A stretch of 32,000 nucleotides of DNA from Planctopirus limnophila DSM 3776 (GTDB taxonomy: Bacteria > Planctomycetota > Planctomycetia > Planctomycetales > Planctomycetaceae). The stretch is taken from assembly GCF_000092105.1 (NCBI RefSeq), contig NC_014148.1, positions 4,110,001 through 4,142,000 of the forward strand. Direction: 5' to 3'. Shown here piece after piece: positions 21,166 through 29,612 of the stretch (the first letter of the stretch is position 1; each line of letters opens with the position of its first letter). The notes beneath the pieces were generated by a model. That model saw nothing but the letters and a program-made list of their open reading frames with translations, was not told the origin of the DNA and searched no databases. A program made the position numbers and the translations under genes.

Positions 21166-22107
21166 TCATTCTCCGTGAACCTCCCCTTCATTCCAAGTGG
21201 CCAGGAGCGGCAGGATTTCGGCGGATTCGTATGCCATGAACCGCACACTGCCGTCGCAGAATAGAAAATTTCCTCCCCCGGCATGCAGGCTCCAGAAGTG
21301 GAGGGCATCGCAATATTCGTCCAACTTGCCGGGTGCGAAAGGGTAGAGCCGATCTTCGCATTGTCCGATGGATACGAATTTATTGTGAGGAACCTGAGCC
21401 ACACGCTCTCTTACGCCCAGCAGCATATCGGCACTGCCACTCCCCTCCTGCCCTGCTCCGGTATACCACCAGCCAAAATTGTGATCAGGGCTCGGCGGAC
21501 GCTCCCCCACACACAAGGTCTGGCTTGTGCCATCGGTGATCTCCGCCAGTCGAATGCGCTTGCCATAGACAAGTGCGCCGGTTGAACTTCGATAATCAAC
21601 ACCTGAGACCCCCAGGTAACTGGTCATCCCCACCAGCGCTCCATTGAGTGTTGGTGCGTTTCGGGGGCGCGAGGCTCTTTCATCAAGCGGACAGACGTAA
21701 GCGGCCATCGTCTTCGCAAATGGATAATGGGGTGGATTCAGGTACGGTGTGTTATAGATCCGGTAAGCACGCTGAGATTCCTGCCATGGGAATGTCTGCT
21801 CAAGATGAGGCAGAATGGGAACCATCCACGACATTTCCAGGTGTTTCGGATCGGTCGAAGAATCCGATTTTCCTGCGGGAAAAAAGCCCTGAGCCGCCTC
21901 GAACGTGTGGAGTGCCACACCGATCTGTTTCAACTGGTTCTGGCACTGCAGCCTGGCTGCTGCCATTCTTGCCCACTGAACTGCTGGCAAAGTGATCGCT
22001 AGAAGGATTGCGATCACCCCGATGGCCACCAGCAATTCAATCATCGTGAAGCCTCTGGCGGCTAAACACTCGCACGACGGCGTGCGATCAAAGCGACGGC
22101 AGCGCAT
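21166..22107 (-). CDS. DUF1559 / H-X9-DG pseudopilin-like protein with prepilin-type N-terminal cleavage/methylation signal (paralog 1)
   Basis: It has the G|FTMIELLVAIGVIAILLAITLPAVQ class III signal, an LQCQNQLKQIGVALHTF block and a C-terminal HAGGGNFLFCDG (H-X9-DG). I prefer the ATG at 22107, which overlaps the upstream gene's end by 46 nt. Confidence 0.85.
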   Translation of the reverse strand: MRCRRFDRTPSCECLAARGFTMIELLVAIGVIAILLAITLPAVQWARMAAARLQCQNQLKQIGVALHTFEAAQGFFPAGKSDSSTDPKHLEMSWMVPILPHLEQTFPWQESQRAYRIYNTPYLNPPHYPFAKTMAAYVCPLDERASRPRNAPTLNGALVGMTSYLGVSGVDYRSSTGALVYGKRIRLAEITDGTSQTLCVGERPPSPDHNFGWWYTGAGQEGSGSADMLLGVRERVAQVPHNKFVSIGQCEDRLYPFAPGKLDEYCDALHFWSLHAGGGNFLFCDGSVRFMAYESAEILPLLATWNEGEVHGE

Positions 22108-23075
22108 AGCAATACCCCTCCGCAAACAAGCCACCACCAGCCCCAGCCTGTTTGAACTCCTTCAGGCTCGGGTAATCCATAATAAGTCAAATAGGCCTCT
22201 TTCCGATCCAAAGGTACTTCCCACTGCGAATAGTCAAATTCATCTCGCTGACTCGCAGGCTTCGCATTCCCCTTGTCATCAATTAAGAACACTTCAACCA
22301 CAGAAGGTAATGCCATACCTTGCACAGTCTGCCATCCCGAAAATCGAACTCCGTTGCACACTGGAATGCTTTTATCCGGCTCATGCACCTGATAGCACGA
22401 TTCATAGCGCACAGGAAAATCGTTGTACTGAGGTGCGTAGTAGATTTTGACCCTTGAAGGATTGTCAGAACTATAGATACGGCGAGAGAGCACCTCCTCC
22501 CTTGACAACGTTTTCAACTCAAATTCAATAAACTTAACCTCGGCACCCTCAATTATTGCACTTCCCTGATCAATAACCCGAGAAAAGTTCTGGCTAAGCT
22601 TATCCGACTTATTAGCTAACCATTTGAGAGTTCTCCATTGCAGTCGATCAGACTCATCAAGAGGGGACAACCCTCCACGGTCTGTAGAAAGGACGAGCGA
22701 TTTCAACACCCAGGGGTCATTGGAGTAACGCTCCAGTCGCGCCTGATAACCAGGATTAGAAATCATCATATAATGATGATTTTCACTGCTGCCTGGCAGA
22801 ACCGACTCAACAAAAAAATACTGACCGTCTCTCTTAATAGAGACTTTTCCGGGCTTTGTTTCGAGAACCTTGCCGGTTTCACGATCGATCTCCGGACTCG
22901 TGATATTTACAGAATAGCGATCCCCTGCCGAATACGAAGCCCATTTCTGCAGGAGACCGGAAAGCAAAGGATCGTGCGGCTTGCTCTGCGCTGAAACTAC
23001 AGCAGGTACTGCTGAAAAAGCTGCGAAGAACATAACCGTTATCATACATGCCGTTTTTGTTGGGTAAATCAACAA
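22062..23075 (-). CDS. Secreted protein with conserved PEP-CTERM-like C-terminal tail (tail-anchored paralog 1)
   Basis: It has an N-terminal signal peptide (...FAAFSAVPAVVSA|QS). The C-terminus is YLTYYGLPEPEGVQTGWGWWWLVCGGVLLCAAVALIARRRASV. It is paralogous to 24255-25280, 25403-26435 and 27045-28064. The start is a TTG at 23075 or an ATG at 23045. Confidence 0.7.
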   Translation of the reverse strand: MLIYPTKTACMITVMFFAAFSAVPAVVSAQSKPHDPLLSGLLQKWASYSAGDRYSVNITSPEIDRETGKVLETKPGKVSIKRDGQYFFVESVLPGSSENHHYMMISNPGYQARLERYSNDPWVLKSLVLSTDRGGLSPLDESDRLQWRTLKWLANKSDKLSQNFSRVIDQGSAIIEGAEVKFIEFELKTLSREEVLSRRIYSSDNPSRVKIYYAPQYNDFPVRYESCYQVHEPDKSIPVCNGVRFSGWQTVQGMALPSVVEVFLIDDKGNAKPASQRDEFDYSQWEVPLDRKEAYLTYYGLPEPEGVQTGWGWWWLVCGGVLLCAAVALIARRRASV

Positions 23076-23277: not shown

Positions 23278-24258
23278 TTACTCCACGCGATTCTCCCCTT
23301 CATTTCTGGAGGCGAGGAGCGGCAGGATTTCGGCGGATTCATACGCCATGAACCGCACACTGCCATCGCAGAATAGAAAATTTCCTCCGCCGGCATGCAG
23401 GCTCCAGAAGTGGAGGGAATCGCAAAGCTCGTCGAGTCGGCCCGGTGCAAAGGGATATGGTTTGTCCGGGCAATGACCATCGGTAATAAATTTGTTGTGC
23501 GGCGTCTGGGCCACTCGCTCTTCAACTCCCAGCAGCATGTCGGCTGAACCACTCCCCTCCTGACCAACTCCCGTATACCACCAGCCAAAATTGTGATCAG
23601 GACTCGGCGGACGCTCGCCCACGCATAACGTCTGGCTCGTGCCGCGGGTCATATCAGAAAACCGAATCACTTGATCAAAGATCAGCACACCGTCCGAGGT
23701 CATGTGGTTTCTTCCCATGACTCCCAGGTAGCTCGTCAGGGCGACGAAACCTCCGTCAAGAGTTGAGGCACTGCGAATTTTTGACGCTCGCTCGTCGAGT
23801 GGACAGACATACGCCGGCACGACCTGGGCAAACGGATAATGGGGCGGGTTGGAGTAGGGGCTGGCTTTCATTTGATAAGCGGCTTGAGACTCATGCCAGA
23901 GAGTGGCCTGTTCGAGATGGGGCAGAATGGGAATCATCCAGGACATGGAATGCTGTTTGGGATTGGTTTTTAAGCCGGTCTTGCCCACAGGCAACTGGCT
24001 ATGTGACGCTTCGAACGTGTGGAGTGCCAGACCAATCTGCTTGAGCTTGTTCTGACATTCCAGACGTTTGGCGGCATGGCGTGACCACTGAACAGCGGGA
24101 ATCGTAATGGCGACCAGGAGGCCAATGACTCCCATCGCCACAAGCAGTTCGATCAATGTGAAGCCGCTCTTTGCGGCTTTGCTTTGCTGGAAAATGAAGT
24201 CCGCTAAAACGCTTGACAGCGAGCGGCAAGACACGGATCTGCGCAGTTCTGCGTTCAT
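23278..24258 (-). CDS. DUF1559 / H-X9-DG pseudopilin-like protein with prepilin-type signal (paralog 2)
   Basis: It has G|FTLIELLVAMGVIGLLVAITIPAVQ, LECQNKLKQIGLALHTF and HAGGGNFLFCDG. Its ATG (24256-24258) overlaps the stop of the upstream gene as ATGA. Confidence 0.85.
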   Translation of the reverse strand: MNAELRRSVSCRSLSSVLADFIFQQSKAAKSGFTLIELLVAMGVIGLLVAITIPAVQWSRHAAKRLECQNKLKQIGLALHTFEASHSQLPVGKTGLKTNPKQHSMSWMIPILPHLEQATLWHESQAAYQMKASPYSNPPHYPFAQVVPAYVCPLDERASKIRSASTLDGGFVALTSYLGVMGRNHMTSDGVLIFDQVIRFSDMTRGTSQTLCVGERPPSPDHNFGWWYTGVGQEGSGSADMLLGVEERVAQTPHNKFITDGHCPDKPYPFAPGRLDELCDSLHFWSLHAGGGNFLFCDGSVRFMAYESAEILPLLASRNEGENRVE

Positions 24259-25280
24259 GTGTGCCGCCTAACGGCGATGACCCAAACCGCGAAGCATGCC
24301 AGTCCTCCCGTAACCAGTAACCACCACCAGCCCCATCCCTTGGACACACCCTCCGGTTCTGGCAAGCCGTAATACGTTAAATACGTCTGTTCTTCGGGGA
24401 AGGGAGCGTCCCAGTTCGAGTGGTCGAACGTGAGAGTCTGCATCGGCGGTCCGTCGAGGGGTGAAATCCACAACTGCCAAATCTCAGCCTTCAAGGGAAT
24501 GTTCAAACCATCGAGTTCACTCCATTCGCTATACGCATGGGCGATCGGACGATGATACGACTTCCCATTAGAACTGAAATTCAAATCGAAGTCGATACGG
24601 ACAGGTGCTCCATCGACCTTGGAGGAGAGATAGAATTTGGCTTTAGGAGTATAGTTGACTGGTAGTAACGCCTTTTTGCGCTCTTCAGGCACATCGGGAA
24701 AGGTTGCTTCGAGCACCCGAACCTCTTCACCCCGCCATGTTTCTCGCGGCAGTTCCTTCAACAGGACACCGGGTTCGCCGAGTCGGTCGCGGAGGATGAC
24801 GGCTTGGCCTAAGTGCGGCAACTCGTTGAAATCATGTTCCCGACTCAGGTCGGGTGGAAGATTCGACCCCAGTCCCAGCTTTTTCAAGACCCAGCGATCA
24901 TTGTTCACCCGTCTCAATAAGGCCCCGTAATGGGAGTTGCGGATCAACAAGTTTGTTAGAGTTGTTTTTGGTCCTGTAGGGAAAGGATCCTCCATAATGT
25001 GATAGCTCGCCGCTTTCTTCAAATGGCTTATGGTGGAAGCAAATTGCATATCACCTGGATTCTCAGGGTTTACACGGGTTGATAGTGTCAACGAATACTG
25101 GAACTTATCCGGCAAGCCCGGAATCTTCCACCAGTTCAGAAGTTCAGCAGGCGTCCATTGCTGATGAGTAGGATTGGATTGCTGGTCAGCCGCCTCGCAG
25201 GCGGGAGCAAAGCCCATGAAGGTCGATACTGCGGAGCAAATCGCCGATAGGAGCAAGAGGCCAAGAAGATACTTGATCAT
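24255..25280 (-). CDS. Secreted protein with PEP-CTERM-like C-terminal tail (tail-anchored paralog 2)
   Basis: From the ATG at 25280 the protein reads MIKYLLGLLLLSAICSAVSTF... (signal peptide). The C-terminus is YLTYYGLPEPEGVSKGWGWWWLLVTGGLACFAVWVIAVRRHT. The longer ORF-track form (to 25562) overlaps the 3' end of paralog 3. An in-frame ATG at 25406 forms an ATGA overlap with the paralog 3 stop. Confidence 0.7.
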   Translation of the reverse strand: MIKYLLGLLLLSAICSAVSTFMGFAPACEAADQQSNPTHQQWTPAELLNWWKIPGLPDKFQYSLTLSTRVNPENPGDMQFASTISHLKKAASYHIMEDPFPTGPKTTLTNLLIRNSHYGALLRRVNNDRWVLKKLGLGSNLPPDLSREHDFNELPHLGQAVILRDRLGEPGVLLKELPRETWRGEEVRVLEATFPDVPEERKKALLPVNYTPKAKFYLSSKVDGAPVRIDFDLNFSSNGKSYHRPIAHAYSEWSELDGLNIPLKAEIWQLWISPLDGPPMQTLTFDHSNWDAPFPEEQTYLTYYGLPEPEGVSKGWGWWWLLVTGGLACFAVWVIAVRRHT

Positions 25281-25402
25281 AACCACATCCTGAGGATCAT
25301 CCTGCGTGCTGACGCCATCGGAAAGTCGCATGCAGGTGATTTTACATAACGTGTCGCAATCACTCCGCGTTTCATGTGCTTCGGATGGTCTGCGGAGCGA
25401 TA

Positions 25403-26435
25403 TCATGAAGACCTCCGGCGGATTAGAATCGTCATCGCGACTACCAGCAGCCCTCCCGCAAGTAGCAACCACCACCAGCCCCATCCCTTGGAGACACCTT
25501 CCGGTTCGGGAAGGCCGTAATAGGTCAGATAGGCCTGTTCCTTCGGAAACGGCGAGTCCCATTCCGAGTAATCAAAATCGGCGCTCCAGTGCGGCTTTCC
25601 CTGGGGCTCGAACGTGTCGCTGTACCAGCCTTCTTGTCGTCGGGGAAGGTGGAATCCACCGTGAGTGACCCAGTCGGTGTATCGGACTGTGGAATTCCTT
25701 GTTTTCGCTCCGGGCGAGTCGCCAAGTAAAAAAGTCTGGTCGAGACGTTGTATCGCATTCCCCAATCCTCTCCCGGAAAAAACGCGGGCCCAGACAATGT
25801 GAGGAATATACCGCGAAGTCTCTTGACGCGTGCCGGACCGAGGCGGAATGGTGACTTCAAACATCTTCGGTTGGACGCCGTCGGCAGTCCCTTCGTGATA
25901 ATCGTCTATACGGAGGCCGCCCTCCTCAAACCGTTCCTTCAGTCCAAGACCGACATGAGTGGGAAAATGAAACGATTCCCACCGTGCATCGATCAGCGTG
26001 TCGTAAGCTTTCTGATGCCGAAGTGCCAGAGAATTGAGCACCCACTTTTTCACCTGGGATTCGCAGCAATTTGGCGGCGTAGTCGGGATTGACAATCTCG
26101 ATGGCCTCCATCGCCCCTTCCGTATCCAGCGGGCGATAGTCGTGGATCCAGTGTCCTCCGTCCGATCGCACCGTTGATACATATCTCTTGAATACTTCTG
26201 TTGGAAGCTGATTCTTGAACTGGGATTGGGTTGATGCGATCTTCATTTGAAAAGATTCGGGGCGATCATCGTTCGACCACCGCCGAAGAAGCTCGTCCAA
26301 ACGTCGGCTTGCCACCACATCGTCGCCTGCACGACACTGCACATGTCGGCACGGCACGGCACTGAAGAGTAACCATGCCAACATGAGACGTATTGCAAAA
26401 CGGTGGTGGTTCGGTCGCTGTGGCCATAAGGACAT
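25403..26435 (-). pseudogene. Tail-anchored paralog 3, interrupted by a 1-nt frameshift at an A5 run
   Basis: ORF 25926-26435 supplies the signal peptide through ...IVNPDYAAKLLRIPGEK. ORF 25403-26182 supplies ...WVLNSLAL... through YLTYYGLPEPEGVSKGWGWWWLLLAGGLLVVAMTILIRRRSS. Together they reconstitute a 343-aa homolog if one A is removed from GGTGAAAAAGTGG (plus-strand T5 at 26046-26050). Confidence 0.65.
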
Positions 26436-26559: not shown

Positions 26560-26862
26560 TCAACCGGCATGGCAATAGCAATTGATACTGTCGGTTGGGG
26601 AATCCCGACACTCGCAGAAGGCCGCGCCTCCAATGGGGTTTCCACAGATTGACCGGTCGTTTCCGCACGTTCGAGGTCCTCCGTTTACTGATCGACGATC
26701 TTTGCAGGCGTCGGAAGTTCCGCTACAGTTAATGTGGTAGGTTGCTCCATCTCCCGTTTCTTCGCCATCCTCCGGGGTATTGTCATCGGCCCAAACGCTG
26801 GTGATGAAGGCGGCGGTCGAGAGGCAAAAGCAGGCGAAACCGAGGGTCAAAAATCTTCGCAT
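26560..26862 (-). CDS. Small secreted 8-cysteine protein (P1)
   Basis: The 100-aa ORF starts at ATG 26862, preceded by AGGAAA. It has a signal peptide MRRFLTLGFACFCLSTAAFITSVWA|DD, an acidic spacer, then the Cys pattern C-x6-C-x12-C-x6-C-x9-C-x-C-x9-C-x-C. It is paralogous to 28197-28510. Confidence 0.6.
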   Translation of the reverse strand: MRRFLTLGFACFCLSTAAFITSVWADDNTPEDGEETGDGATYHINCSGTSDACKDRRSVNGGPRTCGNDRSICGNPIGGAAFCECRDSPTDSINCYCHAG

Positions 26863-26952
26863 GGCAAGTTTCCTAGTTGAGTGACAAAATCTTCGTTCAG
26901 AGACAATCCCTTCAGCGGATGGCCAACCTCGACACAGAGGGGGCGGTGGGAG

Positions 26953-27048
26953 AGACCGCTGGACAGCGGGAATCGTGATGGCGATCAGCAGGCCAATGAC
27001 TCCCATCGCAACAAGCAGTTCGATCAATGTGTAGCCGGGGCGATTCAT
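26953..27048 (-). pseudogene. DUF1559 gene stub (only leader plus pilin-like helix retained)
   Basis: MNRPGYTLIELLVAMGVIGLLIAITIPAVQRS is near-identical at the DNA level to the 5' end of 23278-24258. Similarity stops abruptly near 26950. Its ATG overlaps the paralog 4 stop as ATGA, and the reading frame runs on without a stop into P1. Confidence 0.6.
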
Positions 27049-28064
27049 ACCGAGACTCTTTTCCAGCCCAGCCAGATAGCGATAACGAAACATCCTGCGA
27101 CCGCCCACCACCACCAGCTCATGCGTCGTGAGATCCCCTCCGGTTCTGGCAAGCCGTAATAAGTTAAATACGCCTGTTCCTTGGGGAAGGGTGCGTCCCA
27201 GTTGCCAACGTTTAATTCTGCTGTCTCGCTGGGAACGTCTTTGATGGCAATTCTCCACAATTGCCATGCCTCAAATCTCAACGGAATTGTTAAATCGCCG
27301 ACCTTACTCCACTGACTATACGCAAAAGAAAGGGGTCTTACATATTCTTTTCCGTCGAGTGTATATTTCAATTCAAAATCCATTCGCGCAGGGCCAGACG
27401 GTTCTGACTTCCTGAAATACAGTCGTGCCGATGGAGGAAAGTCGATCGGCCCCTTGCCTATCCTTTGCTCTTCTGAAGCTTCGGGCAAAGCGACATCCAG
27501 CACATCTACATCTTCGCCATTCCAGTTCTCCGTCCACGTTTTTGTGATGGAAACACCAGGTTCTTTCAGACGATTGCGAATACCTACATTTGTACCAGAA
27601 TGCTGAGAGAGCATCGCTTTGGGGTTGACCGTCAGTTCCGGCGGATGATTTCGCCCTGGCGACAGCCTTTTGACGACCCAGCGACCATTATCGATTTTTT
27701 GCAGCATAGCGGCATACTCTGGATTACAGATCACGAGCCTGGTTATTGTACTAGTTGCACCAGTAGGCGAGGGAGACTCACAGACATAATACCCTGGTTG
27801 GAACTTGTAACGCCCGATGGTGGTAGCGACTCGCTGATCCTGCGGATTCTCCGGATCCAGACGAATGGTGCGTTTCACCTCAAGCTGGAAACGATCCGGA
27901 AGTTCCGGAAGCTTCCAGCGATCCTCAATTATTGCTGGAGCCCACTTTCCAGAATTTATGGATTCGCCGGGCGCCGCCACTCCGACAGCGAAAAACTGGA
28001 AAAACAAAAAAGTCCAAAGCACTTGTCGTAGTCTCAATCGAATTCCGACAGACAACCTGGACAT
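27045..28064 (-). CDS. Secreted protein with PEP-CTERM-like C-terminal tail (tail-anchored paralog 4)
   Basis: The 339-aa ORF starts with ATG and has a signal peptide (...FFQFFAVGVAAPG). The C-terminus is YLTYYGLPEPEGISRRMSWWWWAVAGCFVIAIWLGWKRVSV. It shares internal blocks with paralog 2, for example WKLPELPDRFQ versus WKIPGLPDKFQ, and NPEYAAMLQKIDNGRWVVKRL versus NSHYGALLRRVNNDRWVLKKL. Confidence 0.7.
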   Translation of the reverse strand: MSRLSVGIRLRLRQVLWTFLFFQFFAVGVAAPGESINSGKWAPAIIEDRWKLPELPDRFQLEVKRTIRLDPENPQDQRVATTIGRYKFQPGYYVCESPSPTGATSTITRLVICNPEYAAMLQKIDNGRWVVKRLSPGRNHPPELTVNPKAMLSQHSGTNVGIRNRLKEPGVSITKTWTENWNGEDVDVLDVALPEASEEQRIGKGPIDFPPSARLYFRKSEPSGPARMDFELKYTLDGKEYVRPLSFAYSQWSKVGDLTIPLRFEAWQLWRIAIKDVPSETAELNVGNWDAPFPKEQAYLTYYGLPEPEGISRRMSWWWWAVAGCFVIAIWLGWKRVSV

Positions 28065-28094
28065 CTCAACCCTTATCTTGAATATGTATGGACA

Positions 28095-28127
28095 ACATTT
28101 CCGCAGTCTAACTATCTGCGGAAATGT
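28095..28127. other. Perfect 12-bp stem-loop between P2 and paralog 4
   Basis: The string is ACATTTCCGCAG-tctaactat-CTGCGGAAATGT. It lies 70 nt after the P2 stop and 30 nt before the paralog 4 ATG, and has no U-tract. Confidence 0.5.
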
Positions 28128-28196
28128 CGTAGGGATCAGGTCAGGAGAAAACAGCTTTTAAAATCATCTATTTTTGTAAATGAAGAATGCTTATTG

Positions 28197-28510
28197 CTAA
28201 CTCGCCCGGCAATAGCATAACGTGGCGTTTTCTGGCGAAGTCGGAAGAACGGCGCAGTCGCAATCTGTTCGGGGAGGAATGGCGGCTCCACAAATATTAG
28301 GATCACCCACATGACAACTATTGTTCATCCCACTGAAGGGGAAACCCCTTTGATTACAATGATATGAAGGGTTTTTACATGAAGGATTATCATAAGTCGT
28401 TGGATCATCGCCAGGTTCTTCGTTCACAGGATCATCGGCGGAGACGCTCGCAATCAGTGCGATCGCACAGACACAGAGATAAATCCAGATAGTGAGAAGA
28501 GTCTTTTCAT
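28197..28510 (-). pseudogene. Small secreted 8-cysteine protein (P2), start separated from body by an apparent 1-nt frameshift
   Basis: The body frame (GTG ORF 28197-28427) extends upstream without a stop as ...TLLTIWIYLCVCAIALIASVSA|DDPVNEEP, a good signal peptide. The only ATG (28508-28510, preceded by AGGAAA) is one frame off. One extra A in ATGAAAAGACT would give MKKTLLTIW.... The Cys pattern matches P1. Confidence 0.55.
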
Positions 28511-28547: not shown

Positions 28548-29612
28548 CTAGCGAACAGGATCACCTGTCAGCTTCTCTACACTGGCCTCATTCAACTTCT
28601 CGGCAATGGTCGCATGTGGTGGCGAGTCTCGAACCACCGAAAAAGAAAGCCGCTCCTGGCGCAGGCGCTGTTGATGGAGCTTTGTCGTGTTGACCGTTTC
28701 AGTCGCGGGCTGTGCCTCGGCGAAGGGACTTTGAATCGGGCCGGGAGACTTGACCGCATTCAGCTCGTTGAACGAAGAAGAGTTGACGAGTTCTGCTCCA
28801 TTGTGAGACTCATCGCCAACAAATAACGCCAGAGAGCCATCGCCCCGCTGGGCATGCGGAAAAAGTTTTAACTTCATTTCCAGGAAAATGGTCTCCTGGG
28901 CGGGAATGACGAGCGGAATCGGTGTCACGAGAATGATGCCGCAAACAGATTCTTTACCGACGATCGCCACAGGTGTGCTGCGCACATTGCGGACAGGGAT
29001 GCGGGCCTCGACCCATTCCACCGAGGGTTCAATCGGCGTGGCGGGGATGGGGTGATGACTGCTGGTAAGTGCCTGTGCTGAGATCGCATGCGGCCAACTG
29101 ATCGATAACGCCAGCACCATGGCAAGAACCATCAGCGTGACCATGAGGAGCGATTCTCCCGCTGCTCGGGCCACCGGTCGTAACAGGCTTCCCGTGTGAG
29201 GCCTCGAAACGATGGCACACAGATAGGAGACCGCAATGATGCTGACATCGAGAATCACGATACTCCACGGGCGAAAGCTCAGTTTTCCGAAGCAGCCGCA
29301 GGTCGTTTCCCCCGCGAGAGCTGCCGAGAGTGCAAAAACTGCCAGGATCGTCATCAGGAGTGCCGCCAGGATCCAGACCTCGCGGGATCGAAAGTTGGTC
29401 AGAACCAGAGTGGCGACAAAGACGAGGATTGAGACCGAAAAGAGCTCAAAAGCGGTCGTACTCGAGGCTGGCTCGAAATAGAGCAGATCGTGCAGTGACT
29501 GATACGATTTCAAAGCGGCTGAGAGTATCAGCAGACCGCTGATCAGCACGGAGGCCAGCTTGGGAATAACGCCGAGTTCGGGCCAGAAGGCAGACGCTGC
29601 GCGCAGATCCAT
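28548..29612 (-). CDS. MauE/DoxX-like polytopic membrane protein (CGCFG motif) fused to a DUF1573-like C-terminal domain
   Basis: The 354-aa ORF starts with ATG. By eye it has about five hydrophobic helices, with CGCFG (29286-29300) just after helix 3, as I recall for MauE/DoxX redox-associated membrane proteins. The C-terminal ~150 aa have a beta-rich pattern (VEARIPVRNVRSTPVAIVGKESVCGIILVTPIPLVIPAQETIFLEMKLKL) resembling DUF1573. Confidence 0.65.
   Translation of the reverse strand: MDLRAASAFWPELGVIPKLASVLISGLLILSAALKSYQSLHDLLYFEPASSTTAFELFSVSILVFVATLVLTNFRSREVWILAALLMTILAVFALSAALAGETTCGCFGKLSFRPWSIVILDVSIIAVSYLCAIVSRPHTGSLLRPVARAAGESLLMVTLMVLAMVLALSISWPHAISAQALTSSHHPIPATPIEPSVEWVEARIPVRNVRSTPVAIVGKESVCGIILVTPIPLVIPAQETIFLEMKLKLFPHAQRGDGSLALFVGDESHNGAELVNSSSFNELNAVKSPGPIQSPFAEAQPATETVNTTKLHQQRLRQERLSFSVVRDSPPHATIAEKLNEASVEKLTGDPVR

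Follow-up and report, generated by a model that had tools for sequence, protein, structure and literature searches.

The best-described counterparts of the locus analyzed here center on MauE. In the methylamine utilization (mau) cluster (MauE/MauD/MauA), MauE with its CXC motif is linked to a small disulfide-rich exported protein, MauA, the methylamine dehydrogenase (MADH) small subunit. As a DsbB/VKOR-like protein, MauE from two phyla was shown to replace DsbB in Escherichia coli provided that its CXC motif is present, and fusions with thioredoxin-fold domains make up 8.2% of MauE entries (Gonzalez et al., bioRxiv 10.64898/2026.03.05.709764). The text of this preprint presents MauE as a generalist oxidase, without dedicated substrates being named, and neither "Planctomyc" nor "substrate" occurs in it. 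In three Streptomyces candidate families from decRiPPter, mauE, accompanied by mauD or not, lies beside precursors with at least eight Cys (PMC7794033). As MauA and these candidates show, MauE has been paired with small Cys-rich exported proteins before. We analyzed a 32,000-nucleotide (nt) stretch of Planctopirus limnophila DSM 3776 (NC_014148.1, positions 4,110,001 to 4,142,000 of the forward strand; hereafter the window, in which coordinates are counted from the first letter), where the gene of a MauE-like membrane protein, Plim_3201, neighbors two paralogous genes, P1 and P2, for predicted secreted eight-Cys mini-proteins. The literature searched held no main-text mention of Plim_319x or Plim_320x. 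Our preferred reading, held with slightly better than even confidence from comparison of the sequences, is that the locus encodes a MauE-oxidized, exported and highly polymorphic mini-protein, with P1 as the real gene and P2, which occupies the ancestral slot, as its decaying copy. The novelty lies in the protein family, its fixed cassette with DUF1573, LolA-like and DUF1559 proteins, and its allele-swapping behavior.

The locus resembles the mau cluster in linking a CXC-bearing MauE to a small, putatively disulfide-rich exported protein, and distant loci described below carry a MauD-like CxxC segment of thioredoxin type (recognized by eye, with no Pfam hit). It differs in its partners, which are DUF1573, LolA-like and DUF1559 proteins, and in having no mau genes in the window. 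A likeness to the MADH small subunit, whose maturation an earlier note on this DNA had brought up, was not borne out, as the mini-protein family profile matched no PDB chain at E ≤ 10, no MADH light-chain similarity was found, and mature P1 has no Trp for the tryptophan tryptophylquinone (TTQ) cofactor; an identity as MauA was rejected on these grounds. The same note's idea of a disulfide role for the MauE-like neighbor is strengthened by the preprint on DsbB-like MauE with a CXC site. With the DsbB/VKOR-like description, Plim_3201 shares the four-helix core, a CGC in the loop after helix 3 and an occurrence outside mau clusters, and relatives fused to thioredoxin-fold domains are found on both sides; the Planctopirus MauE differs in being fused to a DUF1573-like domain and fixed beside a hypervariable Cys-rich gene. 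With the Streptomyces families it shares a mauE outside the mau cluster and an adjoining small precursor with at least eight Cys, whereas those families belong to another phylum and are bioinformatic candidates, and the Planctopirus product has a predicted Sec signal peptide, no tailoring enzymes, and LolA-like and pseudopilin genes around it.

The Streptomyces parallel brings with it the alternative of a ribosomally made and post-translationally modified peptide (RiPP), in which a leader-plus-core precursor would be tailored and exported by dedicated enzymes. A small eight-Cys precursor beside mauE and a conserved N-terminal part with a variable core would both fit such a product; however, the N-terminus is an ordinary Sec-type signal peptide with an AXA-type site, none of the loci holds a tailoring enzyme, a leader peptidase or other protease, or a peptidase-ABC or other exporter, and a product of ~75 residues is a small protein. 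We therefore rejected a RiPP precursor, which we regard as highly improbable.

The elements that carry the main finding are the following (aa, amino acids; dN and dS, non-synonymous and synonymous divergence; TM, transmembrane).

26560-26862, minus strand: P1, an intact 100-aa gene (uninterrupted translation, homologs, dN/dS)
26788-26862, minus strand: P1 signal peptide, aa 1-25 (translation, hydrophobic segment aa 4-25, V-W-A motif)
26728-26787, minus strand: P1 acidic spacer, aa 26-45, DDNTPEDGEETGDGATYHIN (translation)
26563-26727, minus strand: P1 eight-Cys domain, aa 46-100, ~55 aa (translation)
26560-26562, minus strand: P1 stop (translation)
26863-26958, minus strand: conserved ~95-nt segment 5' of P1, which travels with the P1-type leader and holds AGGAAA (nt similarity)
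26954-27048, minus strand: remnant of a DUF1559 pseudopilin N-terminus (N_methyl motif), 31 codons, in frame with the P1 upstream region (PF07963, E 2.2e-6; breakpoints)
28197-28510, minus strand: P2, paralog of P1 in the slot beside MauE, frameshifted, a probable pseudogene (translation, alignment, assemblies, relaxed dN/dS)
28548-29612, minus strand: Plim_3201, MauE-like membrane protein, 354 aa (PF07291, hydropathy, hhalign, annotation)

P1 translates as MRRFLTLGFACFCLSTAAFITSVWA/DDNTPEDGEETGDGATYHIN-C-x6-C-x12-C-x6-C-x9-C-x-C-x9-C-x-C-HAG followed by a stop, where the slash marks the predicted cleavage site. Its signal peptide, judged by hydropathy and motif, has a basic n-region (MRR), a hydrophobic stretch from aa 4 to 25 and a predicted cleavage between VWA and DD. 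The Cys spacings given for both genes in the earlier note (for P2, in the frame of its body), the TY, ICG and CYC-plus-three landmarks and the 37-nt gap between the MauE-like stop and P2 all proved exact. The AGGAAA said there to lie 6-10 nt before each ATG stands at 26869-26874, 6 nt before that of P1; for P2 the distance is 4 nt, outside the range. In a comparison with Planctopirus hydrillae, the P1 mature domain differed by 2 non-synonymous and 7 synonymous changes (dN 0.015, dS 0.196, dN/dS 0.08), against dN/dS values of 0.2 for MauE and 0.13 for HemC. P1 is thus under strong purifying selection, tighter than that on hemC, and it is shown to be a genuine gene under constraint, whose product carries a Sec-type signal peptide and eight Cys that are conserved.

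RefSeq holds P1 only within a 177-aa "type II secretion system protein" (WP_148227157.1), which is a chimera of the DUF1559 N-terminal remnant and P1; the PF07963 match itself (E 2.2e-6) was obtained on a 162-aa reading. The similarity breakpoints fall at 26954/26958, where the remnant stops and the similarity of the P1 upstream segment begins. From 26958 to 26728 (231 nt, comprising the ~95-nt segment and the leader), the window shares 88.7-90% nt identity with two homologous loci, L001 and L004, in which the P1-type upstream segment sits behind different genes and the homologs have no pseudopilin remnant. In addition, the 177-aa reading would have two hydrophobic segments and would thereby place the Cys domain at the wrong face of the membrane. 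The 177-aa start was rejected on these three grounds, which leave 26862 as the sensible start of P1, and so was a type IV pilin or type II secretion pseudopilin identity, since the N_methyl motif is confined to the 31-codon remnant and is followed by a second hydrophobic segment. The RefSeq "type II secretion" name is a mis-annotation.

The situation of P2 is different. The interval 28197-28510 spans 314 nt, a length not divisible by three; translation from the ATG at 28510 gives MKRLFSLSGFISVSVRSH and then a stop, and the Cys-rich body (...IYLCVCAIALIASVSA/DDPVNEEPGDDPTTYDNPS-C-x6-C-x13-C-x7-C-x9-C-x-C-x12-C-x-C-RAS, then a stop) lies in another frame. Upstream of a GTG at 28427, the body frame contains no ATG, GTG or TTG; this GTG, as the first alternative start, would leave no signal peptide and was rejected. 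Alignment with intact homologs located a 1-nt deletion at ~28485/28486 (CTATCTGG-ATTT), within the signal-peptide region. Because the same deletion was found at 100% identity in two independent Logan assemblies (SRR017854 and SRR4046663), which derive from other runs, it is probably real and not an assembly error, and P2 is absent among the genes called in both independent assemblies examined. With one base restored, P2 becomes 104 aa long and aligns with P1 at 34% identity (E 1e-9) with 8/8 Cys in register, which agrees with the paralogy first proposed; the accompanying claim that P2 is an intact gene had to be given up. The P2 mature domain shows relaxed constraint against P. hydrillae (dN 0.116, dS 0.248), and P2 is probably a pseudogene in DSM 3776. 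The P. hydrillae ortholog of P2 (L003 2153-2494) carries two separate 1-nt deletions near its 3' end, by which the last two Cys are lost. P2 is thus broken independently, and at different places, in P. limnophila and P. hydrillae, while P1 is intact in both.

These frameshifts could also be taken to mean that both copies are decaying or non-functional, with P1 an orphan cassette inserted in a truncated pseudopilin gene. Apart from the two independent lesions of P2, this account can point to the frameshift in the E-like gene that follows P1 (see below) and to the position of P1 behind the DUF1559 remnant. It is contradicted by the dN/dS of 0.08, a constraint above that on hemC, and by a start codon, signal peptide, eight Cys and upstream segment that are all intact and conserved in P1, and we consider decay of both copies very unlikely. 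No mini-protein copies beyond P1 and P2 were found within the window.

Homologs with the Cys pattern outside this locus had been set beforehand as a test, and seven further homologs keep the Cys framework, the exception among them being P0008 with 7/8 Cys. The pattern exceeds what chance would give. The family comprises nine distinct intact sequences and the two frameshifted P2 copies; its intact members come from P. limnophila (P1), P. hydrillae (the P1 ortholog), P. ephydatiae, a "Planctomyces sp." metagenome-assembled genome (two copies) and several metagenome or Logan contigs. When P1 was compared with 1.84 billion representative proteins by phmmer (E ≤ 0.001), five matches were returned, namely its own 177-aa call, two true relatives and two spurious ones; the latter, a translated tandem repeat (P0003) and a giant adhesin (P0005), were rejected as compositional matches. 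The further members came from a profile search and a genome scan, and the search of metagenomes with the mini-protein profile found nothing. P1 and P2 had no match in Pfam (E ≤ 0.1), NCBIfam or PADLOC, nor did the family profile match PDB chains (E ≤ 10), which accords with the proposal of an undescribed family of secreted-type eight-Cys mini-proteins. On these searches the sequence family appears confined to the genus Planctopirus.

Several other identities were considered for the mature product. The mature proteins have a net charge of -6 to -8 (the Cys domain alone, 0 to -3) and a grand average of hydropathy (GRAVY) of -0.25 to -1.05; they are hydrophilic, with more than 50% P/G/N/S/T/D. 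Being acidic, hydrophilic and rich in Pro, Gly, Asn, Ser and Thr, they are atypical for membrane-active antimicrobial peptides, and a cationic peptide of the defensin or cysteine-stabilized alpha-beta type was rejected on the negative charge and the absence of CxxxC from the alignment. By eye, the Cys2-Cys7 spacing is compatible with an epidermal growth factor (EGF)-like domain; an EGF-like identity was rejected because no Pfam family (E ≤ 0.1) and no PDB chain (E ≤ 10) was matched. One Cys in the hydrophobic core of the signal peptide (alignment position 13) is invariant family-wide and has no lipobox around it. A lipoprotein reading was rejected on inspection, given that C11 and C13 of the h-region have no lipobox [LVI][ASTVI][GAS]C and the c-region ends in VWA or VSA.

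The mini-protein family is linked tightly and specifically to the MauE-like gene. All Planctopirus-type loci share the order hemC - MauE-like - mini-protein - one or two E-like genes - DUF1559 - rpsB, where E-like denotes the LolA-like anchored proteins of the Plim_3200 type described below. The mini-protein gene lies directly 3' of the MauE-like gene in 7/7 loci, the gap being 49 nt in L001 and 37 nt in the other six, and in L003 (P. hydrillae) this adjacent copy is the frameshifted one; the link to the CGCFG protein anticipated by the earlier note, with DUF1559 also in the order, is therefore upheld. The island is expanded in P. limnophila and P. hydrillae, with P1 as a second mini-protein gene, E-like genes numbering four, and the DUF1559 remnant in addition to two full DUF1559 genes. 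L001 matches the window in its flanks at 91% nt identity; the MauE proteins share 41% aa identity, and the mini-protein is also different, with a P1-type leader and upstream segment joined to another mature domain.

Plim_3201 is named "MauE/DoxX family redox-associated membrane protein" in RefSeq. Its CGC occupies residues 105-107, between hydrophobic segments 3 (ending at 104) and 4 (starting at 115), and beyond the four-segment core come a fifth TM segment and, at the C-terminus, a DUF1573-like beta domain. The latter had no Pfam match to DUF1573 (PF07610); when it was aligned to the cassette DUF1573 with hhalign, the similarity was weak (probability 59%, E 9e-5), SVCG falling on SCGC with one Cys kept. 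DUF1573 has selenocysteine (UGC) forms, a hint of a redox role. A word-indexed search with Plim_3201 returned its own cluster alone.

A comparable five-gene order exists in distant planctomycetes. By scanning metagenomes with MauE motifs, with neighbors disregarded in the choice, we obtained six distant loci, one of which lies on a contig that ends too early; the five judged represent three independent lineages. Each carries on one strand MauE, a DUF1573 protein, a secreted open reading frame (ORF) with 12-15 Cys and a C-terminally anchored protein, and a DUF1559 pseudopilin ends the order in L012 and L013. The anchored protein of L012 matches the E-like hidden Markov model (HMM) with E 4.9e-5. 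A thioredoxin-like CxxC segment is fused to MauE in L011 and L012 and encoded by the next gene in L013/L015, the L010 gene being cut at the contig end; these segments gave no Pfam hit. By eye, the CxxC contexts read TCPEC, GCRSC, TCSHC and GCKAC (L011 531-1580, L012 4884-5846, L014 1336-2337 and L013 5224-5724). Searched against PDB sequences, the distant Cys-rich ORFs returned nothing meaningful, the sole match being a conotoxin at E 0.98. A filter for secreted Cys-rich ORFs, applied to both strands of 120 kb, recovered the cassette ORFs and the Planctopirus mini-proteins and no others. That distant planctomycetes have gene sets of a similar kind points to a conserved envelope module.

This recurrence bears on the alternative that the mini-protein is one of many general substrates of oxidative folding, such as a protease inhibitor or a small binding protein, whose position is meaningless. 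Protease inhibitors also show hypervariable loops on a fixed Cys scaffold, MauE has been proposed as a generalist DsbB-like protein, and with 68 DUF1559 paralogs of undescribed function in P. limnophila, adjacency to such a gene is not rare. However, three independent distant lineages show the gene order again, with Cys-rich sequences that are unrelated, the 37-nt distance from MauE to the mini-protein is constant from species to species, MauE and mini-protein have changed jointly in L001, and the 120 kb of surrounding sequence holds no other Cys-rich secreted ORF. We therefore regard a general substrate as quite unlikely.

The mature domains of the family behave as exchangeable alleles. Nucleotide similarity between species spans hemC, mauE and the signal/pro region and ends at 28346-28429, at the start of the mature domain. 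Between two members, P0007 and P0006, the leaders are 96% identical at the nt level (dS 0.07), whereas the mature domains are 46% identical with dS saturated, and leaders and mature parts are mosaic across the family. Since the leader is near-identical while the mature domain is saturated at synonymous sites, cassettes have been swapped: old mature-domain alleles are exchanged by recombination behind a homogenized leader, and rapid point mutation is not the source of the divergence. The same allele exchange is indicated in a distant lineage, where the Cys-rich genes of L010 (1861-2355) and L011 (2725-3159) are 48% identical with dS 1.07, and for the MauE, DUF1573 and anchored proteins beside them the identity is 93-96% and dS 0.03-0.11. 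The island and its P. hydrillae counterpart share 94% identity over 10.6 kb and are separated by six indels, of which four fall in mini-protein or E-like genes (the P2 deletion of the window, the two P. hydrillae P2 deletions and an A at 26046). Near-invariant signal/pro regions and a hypervariable mature peptide on a fixed Cys framework are also characteristic of conotoxin superfamilies. Conotoxins, however, are animal venom genes diversified mainly by point substitution, unlike the saturated dS, recombined old alleles and acidic products seen here. The Cys-rich gene is an allele-exchange hotspot in two distant lineages, a pattern usual in recognition, antigen and competition loci, and the deep allelic divergence kept by recombination points to one of these functions.

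A competition function would be served by a bacteriocin-like disulfide toxin matured by MauE, with the LolA-like anchored proteins as cognate or orphan immunity proteins that sequester it. The island, flanked by housekeeping genes, differs from strain to strain. As in polymorphic toxin and bacteriocin loci, which have orphan immunity genes and exchange their C-terminal cassettes, a conserved leader precedes a variable, swapped mature part (sometimes swapped together with the next gene), several E-like paralogs accompany each mini-protein gene, and some effector copies are pseudogenized; sub-types also pair in part, P0006/P0008 with E340/E333, P0001 with B-type, and P1 with the D/C paralog. On the other hand, the mature proteins, acidic and hydrophilic as described, do not resemble known disulfide-rich antibacterial peptides, and no toxin or defense domain was detected (Pfam, NCBIfam, PADLOC). 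In L010/L011, moreover, the Cys-rich gene is swapped and the anchored protein does not co-vary with it, being 93% identical with flank-like dS. Near-identical E types also occur without the matching mini-protein, and the start/stop coupling of E-like genes is to DUF1559 genes, not to the mini-protein. A toxin with anchored immunity proteins is, on balance, unlikely.

Returning to the preferred reading of a MauE-oxidized polymorphic mini-protein, P1 encodes a predicted Sec-exported pre-protein, as read from its sequence. Signal peptidase I would cut it after VWA or VSA to release an acidic, hydrophilic protein of ~75 residues (7.8 kDa, pI 4.4), whose C-terminal domain of ~55 residues could close its eight Cys into four disulfides. 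In the periplasm these disulfides might be introduced via Plim_3201 as a DsbB-type oxidase acting through the CGC loop, as the literature and the gene linkage suggest. As the synteny shows, the mini-protein is the variable part of a conserved planctomycete cassette of MauE (with or without a thioredoxin-like segment), DUF1573, Cys-rich, LolA-like anchored and DUF1559 proteins, in which a near-constant leader is retained while old, diverged mature-domain alleles are recombined between strains. The weakest step of the scheme comes last: from this pattern, the product may be an extracytoplasmic, probably surface-exposed recognition or binding element acting with the LolA-like and DUF1559 proteins, and balancing or frequency-dependent selection may act on it.

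Several findings weigh against this scheme. Plim_3201 scores 27.0 bits against PF07291 (residues 18-132, E 6e-6), exactly the cut-off of 27, compared with 38-46 bits for the MauE proteins of the distant cassettes, and it has no thioredoxin-like CxxC segment of the kind present in distant loci, so that it would have to rely on a separate DsbA-like partner. The place of MauE beside the mini-protein may have only historical reasons, with MauE acting as a general oxidase. With P2 broken here and its P. hydrillae ortholog broken elsewhere, the mini-protein beside MauE is dispensable in these P. limnophila and P. hydrillae strains. As for fold and disulfide map, the AlphaFold2 model of P1 (from a 7-sequence alignment) reached a predicted local distance difference test score (pLDDT) of 42 and a predicted template modeling score (pTM) of 0.19, and the knot-like four-disulfide fold put forward at the outset is unsupported. 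Neither gene of the paralog pair Plim_3198/3200 was found essential by transposon sequencing (Tn-seq), one being non-essential and the other unclear. Finally, no similarity was detected between the distant Cys-rich ORFs and P1/P2 or among these ORFs themselves, and the case for the broader cassette is one of position, composition and three independent lineages.

A more specific version of the preferred reading is that of an envelope module in which a MauE oxidase, with thioredoxin-like and DUF1573 partners, is dedicated to the allele-shuffled Cys-rich tip or recognition element of a DUF1559 pseudopilus, with the LolA-like anchored protein as chaperone; this we put forward tentatively, as possible though doubtful. 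If true, DUF1559, which is the phylum's largest paralog family, would for the first time become accessible to functional study, and a non-mau MauE would have its first dedicated natural substrates. A recent proposal ranks MauE second in frequency among bacterial DsbB-type oxidases, and the locus offers candidate non-methylamine substrates for it; one cassette also ties together three large planctomycete families, DUF1559, DUF1573 and the LolA-like anchored family.

The remaining features of the island, all on the minus strand, are listed below.

27045-28064, minus strand: Plim_3200 ("E"), with a signal peptide, a LolA-superfamily-like ectodomain, the YLTYYGLPEPEG motif and a W-rich C-terminal TM anchor (AlphaFold2, Foldseek, paralog alignment)
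25403-26435, minus strand: E-like paralog directly 3' of P1 (D/C type), split into ORFs 25926-26435 and 25403-26182 (indel comparison, E-family HMM)
24255-25280, minus strand: E-like paralog "B", with likely start MIKYLL (ORF list, paralog alignment, HMM)
23278-24258, minus strand: full-length DUF1559 pseudopilin-like gene with N_methyl, SBP_bac_10 and an H-X9-DG C-terminus (PF07596, E 1.2e-37; PF07963; TIGR04294)
22062-23075, minus strand: fourth, divergent E-like paralog, 337 aa (E-family HMM, E 2.6e-119)
21166-22137, minus strand: second full-length DUF1559 pseudopilin-like gene, which ends the variable island just before rpsB (PF07596, E 4.5e-36)
28092-28130, minus strand: 15-bp hairpin without a U-tract, between P2 and Plim_3200 (folding, conservation)

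The E-like family had no sequence-profile match in Pfam or NCBIfam. The AlphaFold2 model of Plim_3200 (pLDDT 69.6, pTM 0.61) was compared with the PDB by Foldseek, and the top 15 matches were all LolA-superfamily folds (LolA-type, DUF1329, RseB/MucB, LprG and LppX) with E 1.6e-8 to 1e-3 and probability 0.82-1.0, at low TM-scores of 0.15-0.46; on this model the E-like proteins are predicted to be LolA-superfamily-like. The C-terminus carries the conserved NWDAPFP..YLTYYGLPEPEG motif (NWDAPFPxEQAYLTYYGLPEPEG) followed by the W-rich membrane anchor. An identity as PEP-CTERM proteins was rejected, with no NCBIfam hit and the PEP motif lying away from the TM segment. The E-like 3' ends, which encode this motif and the anchor (27100-27204, 24320-24420 and 25468-25569), are conserved at the nt level, the paralogs being otherwise 22-46% identical (the fourth, 22-29% to the others), and may serve as recombination handles. 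The split paralog results from an extra A at 26046 (A5 against A4 in P. hydrillae, where the gene is intact at 343 aa), also present in the independent SRR017854 assembly. The 435-aa ORF at 24255-25562 (minus strand) is probably over-extended, as paralogs align from the MIKYLL start at ~25280. E-like stops overlap DUF1559 starts in ATGA at 27045-27048 (the DUF1559 remnant) and at 24255-24258, which suggests a coupling of E-like genes to the pseudopilin rather than to the mini-protein.

Among non-coding signals, a fold check gave no stable hairpin 3' of P1, and a scan for promoters and terminators yielded nothing above chance level. The 136-nt intergenic stretch around the hairpin at 28092-28130 folds with -33.4 kcal/mol (z-score -3.56), and the hairpin, which could act as a transcript stabilizer or attenuator, is kept in L002.

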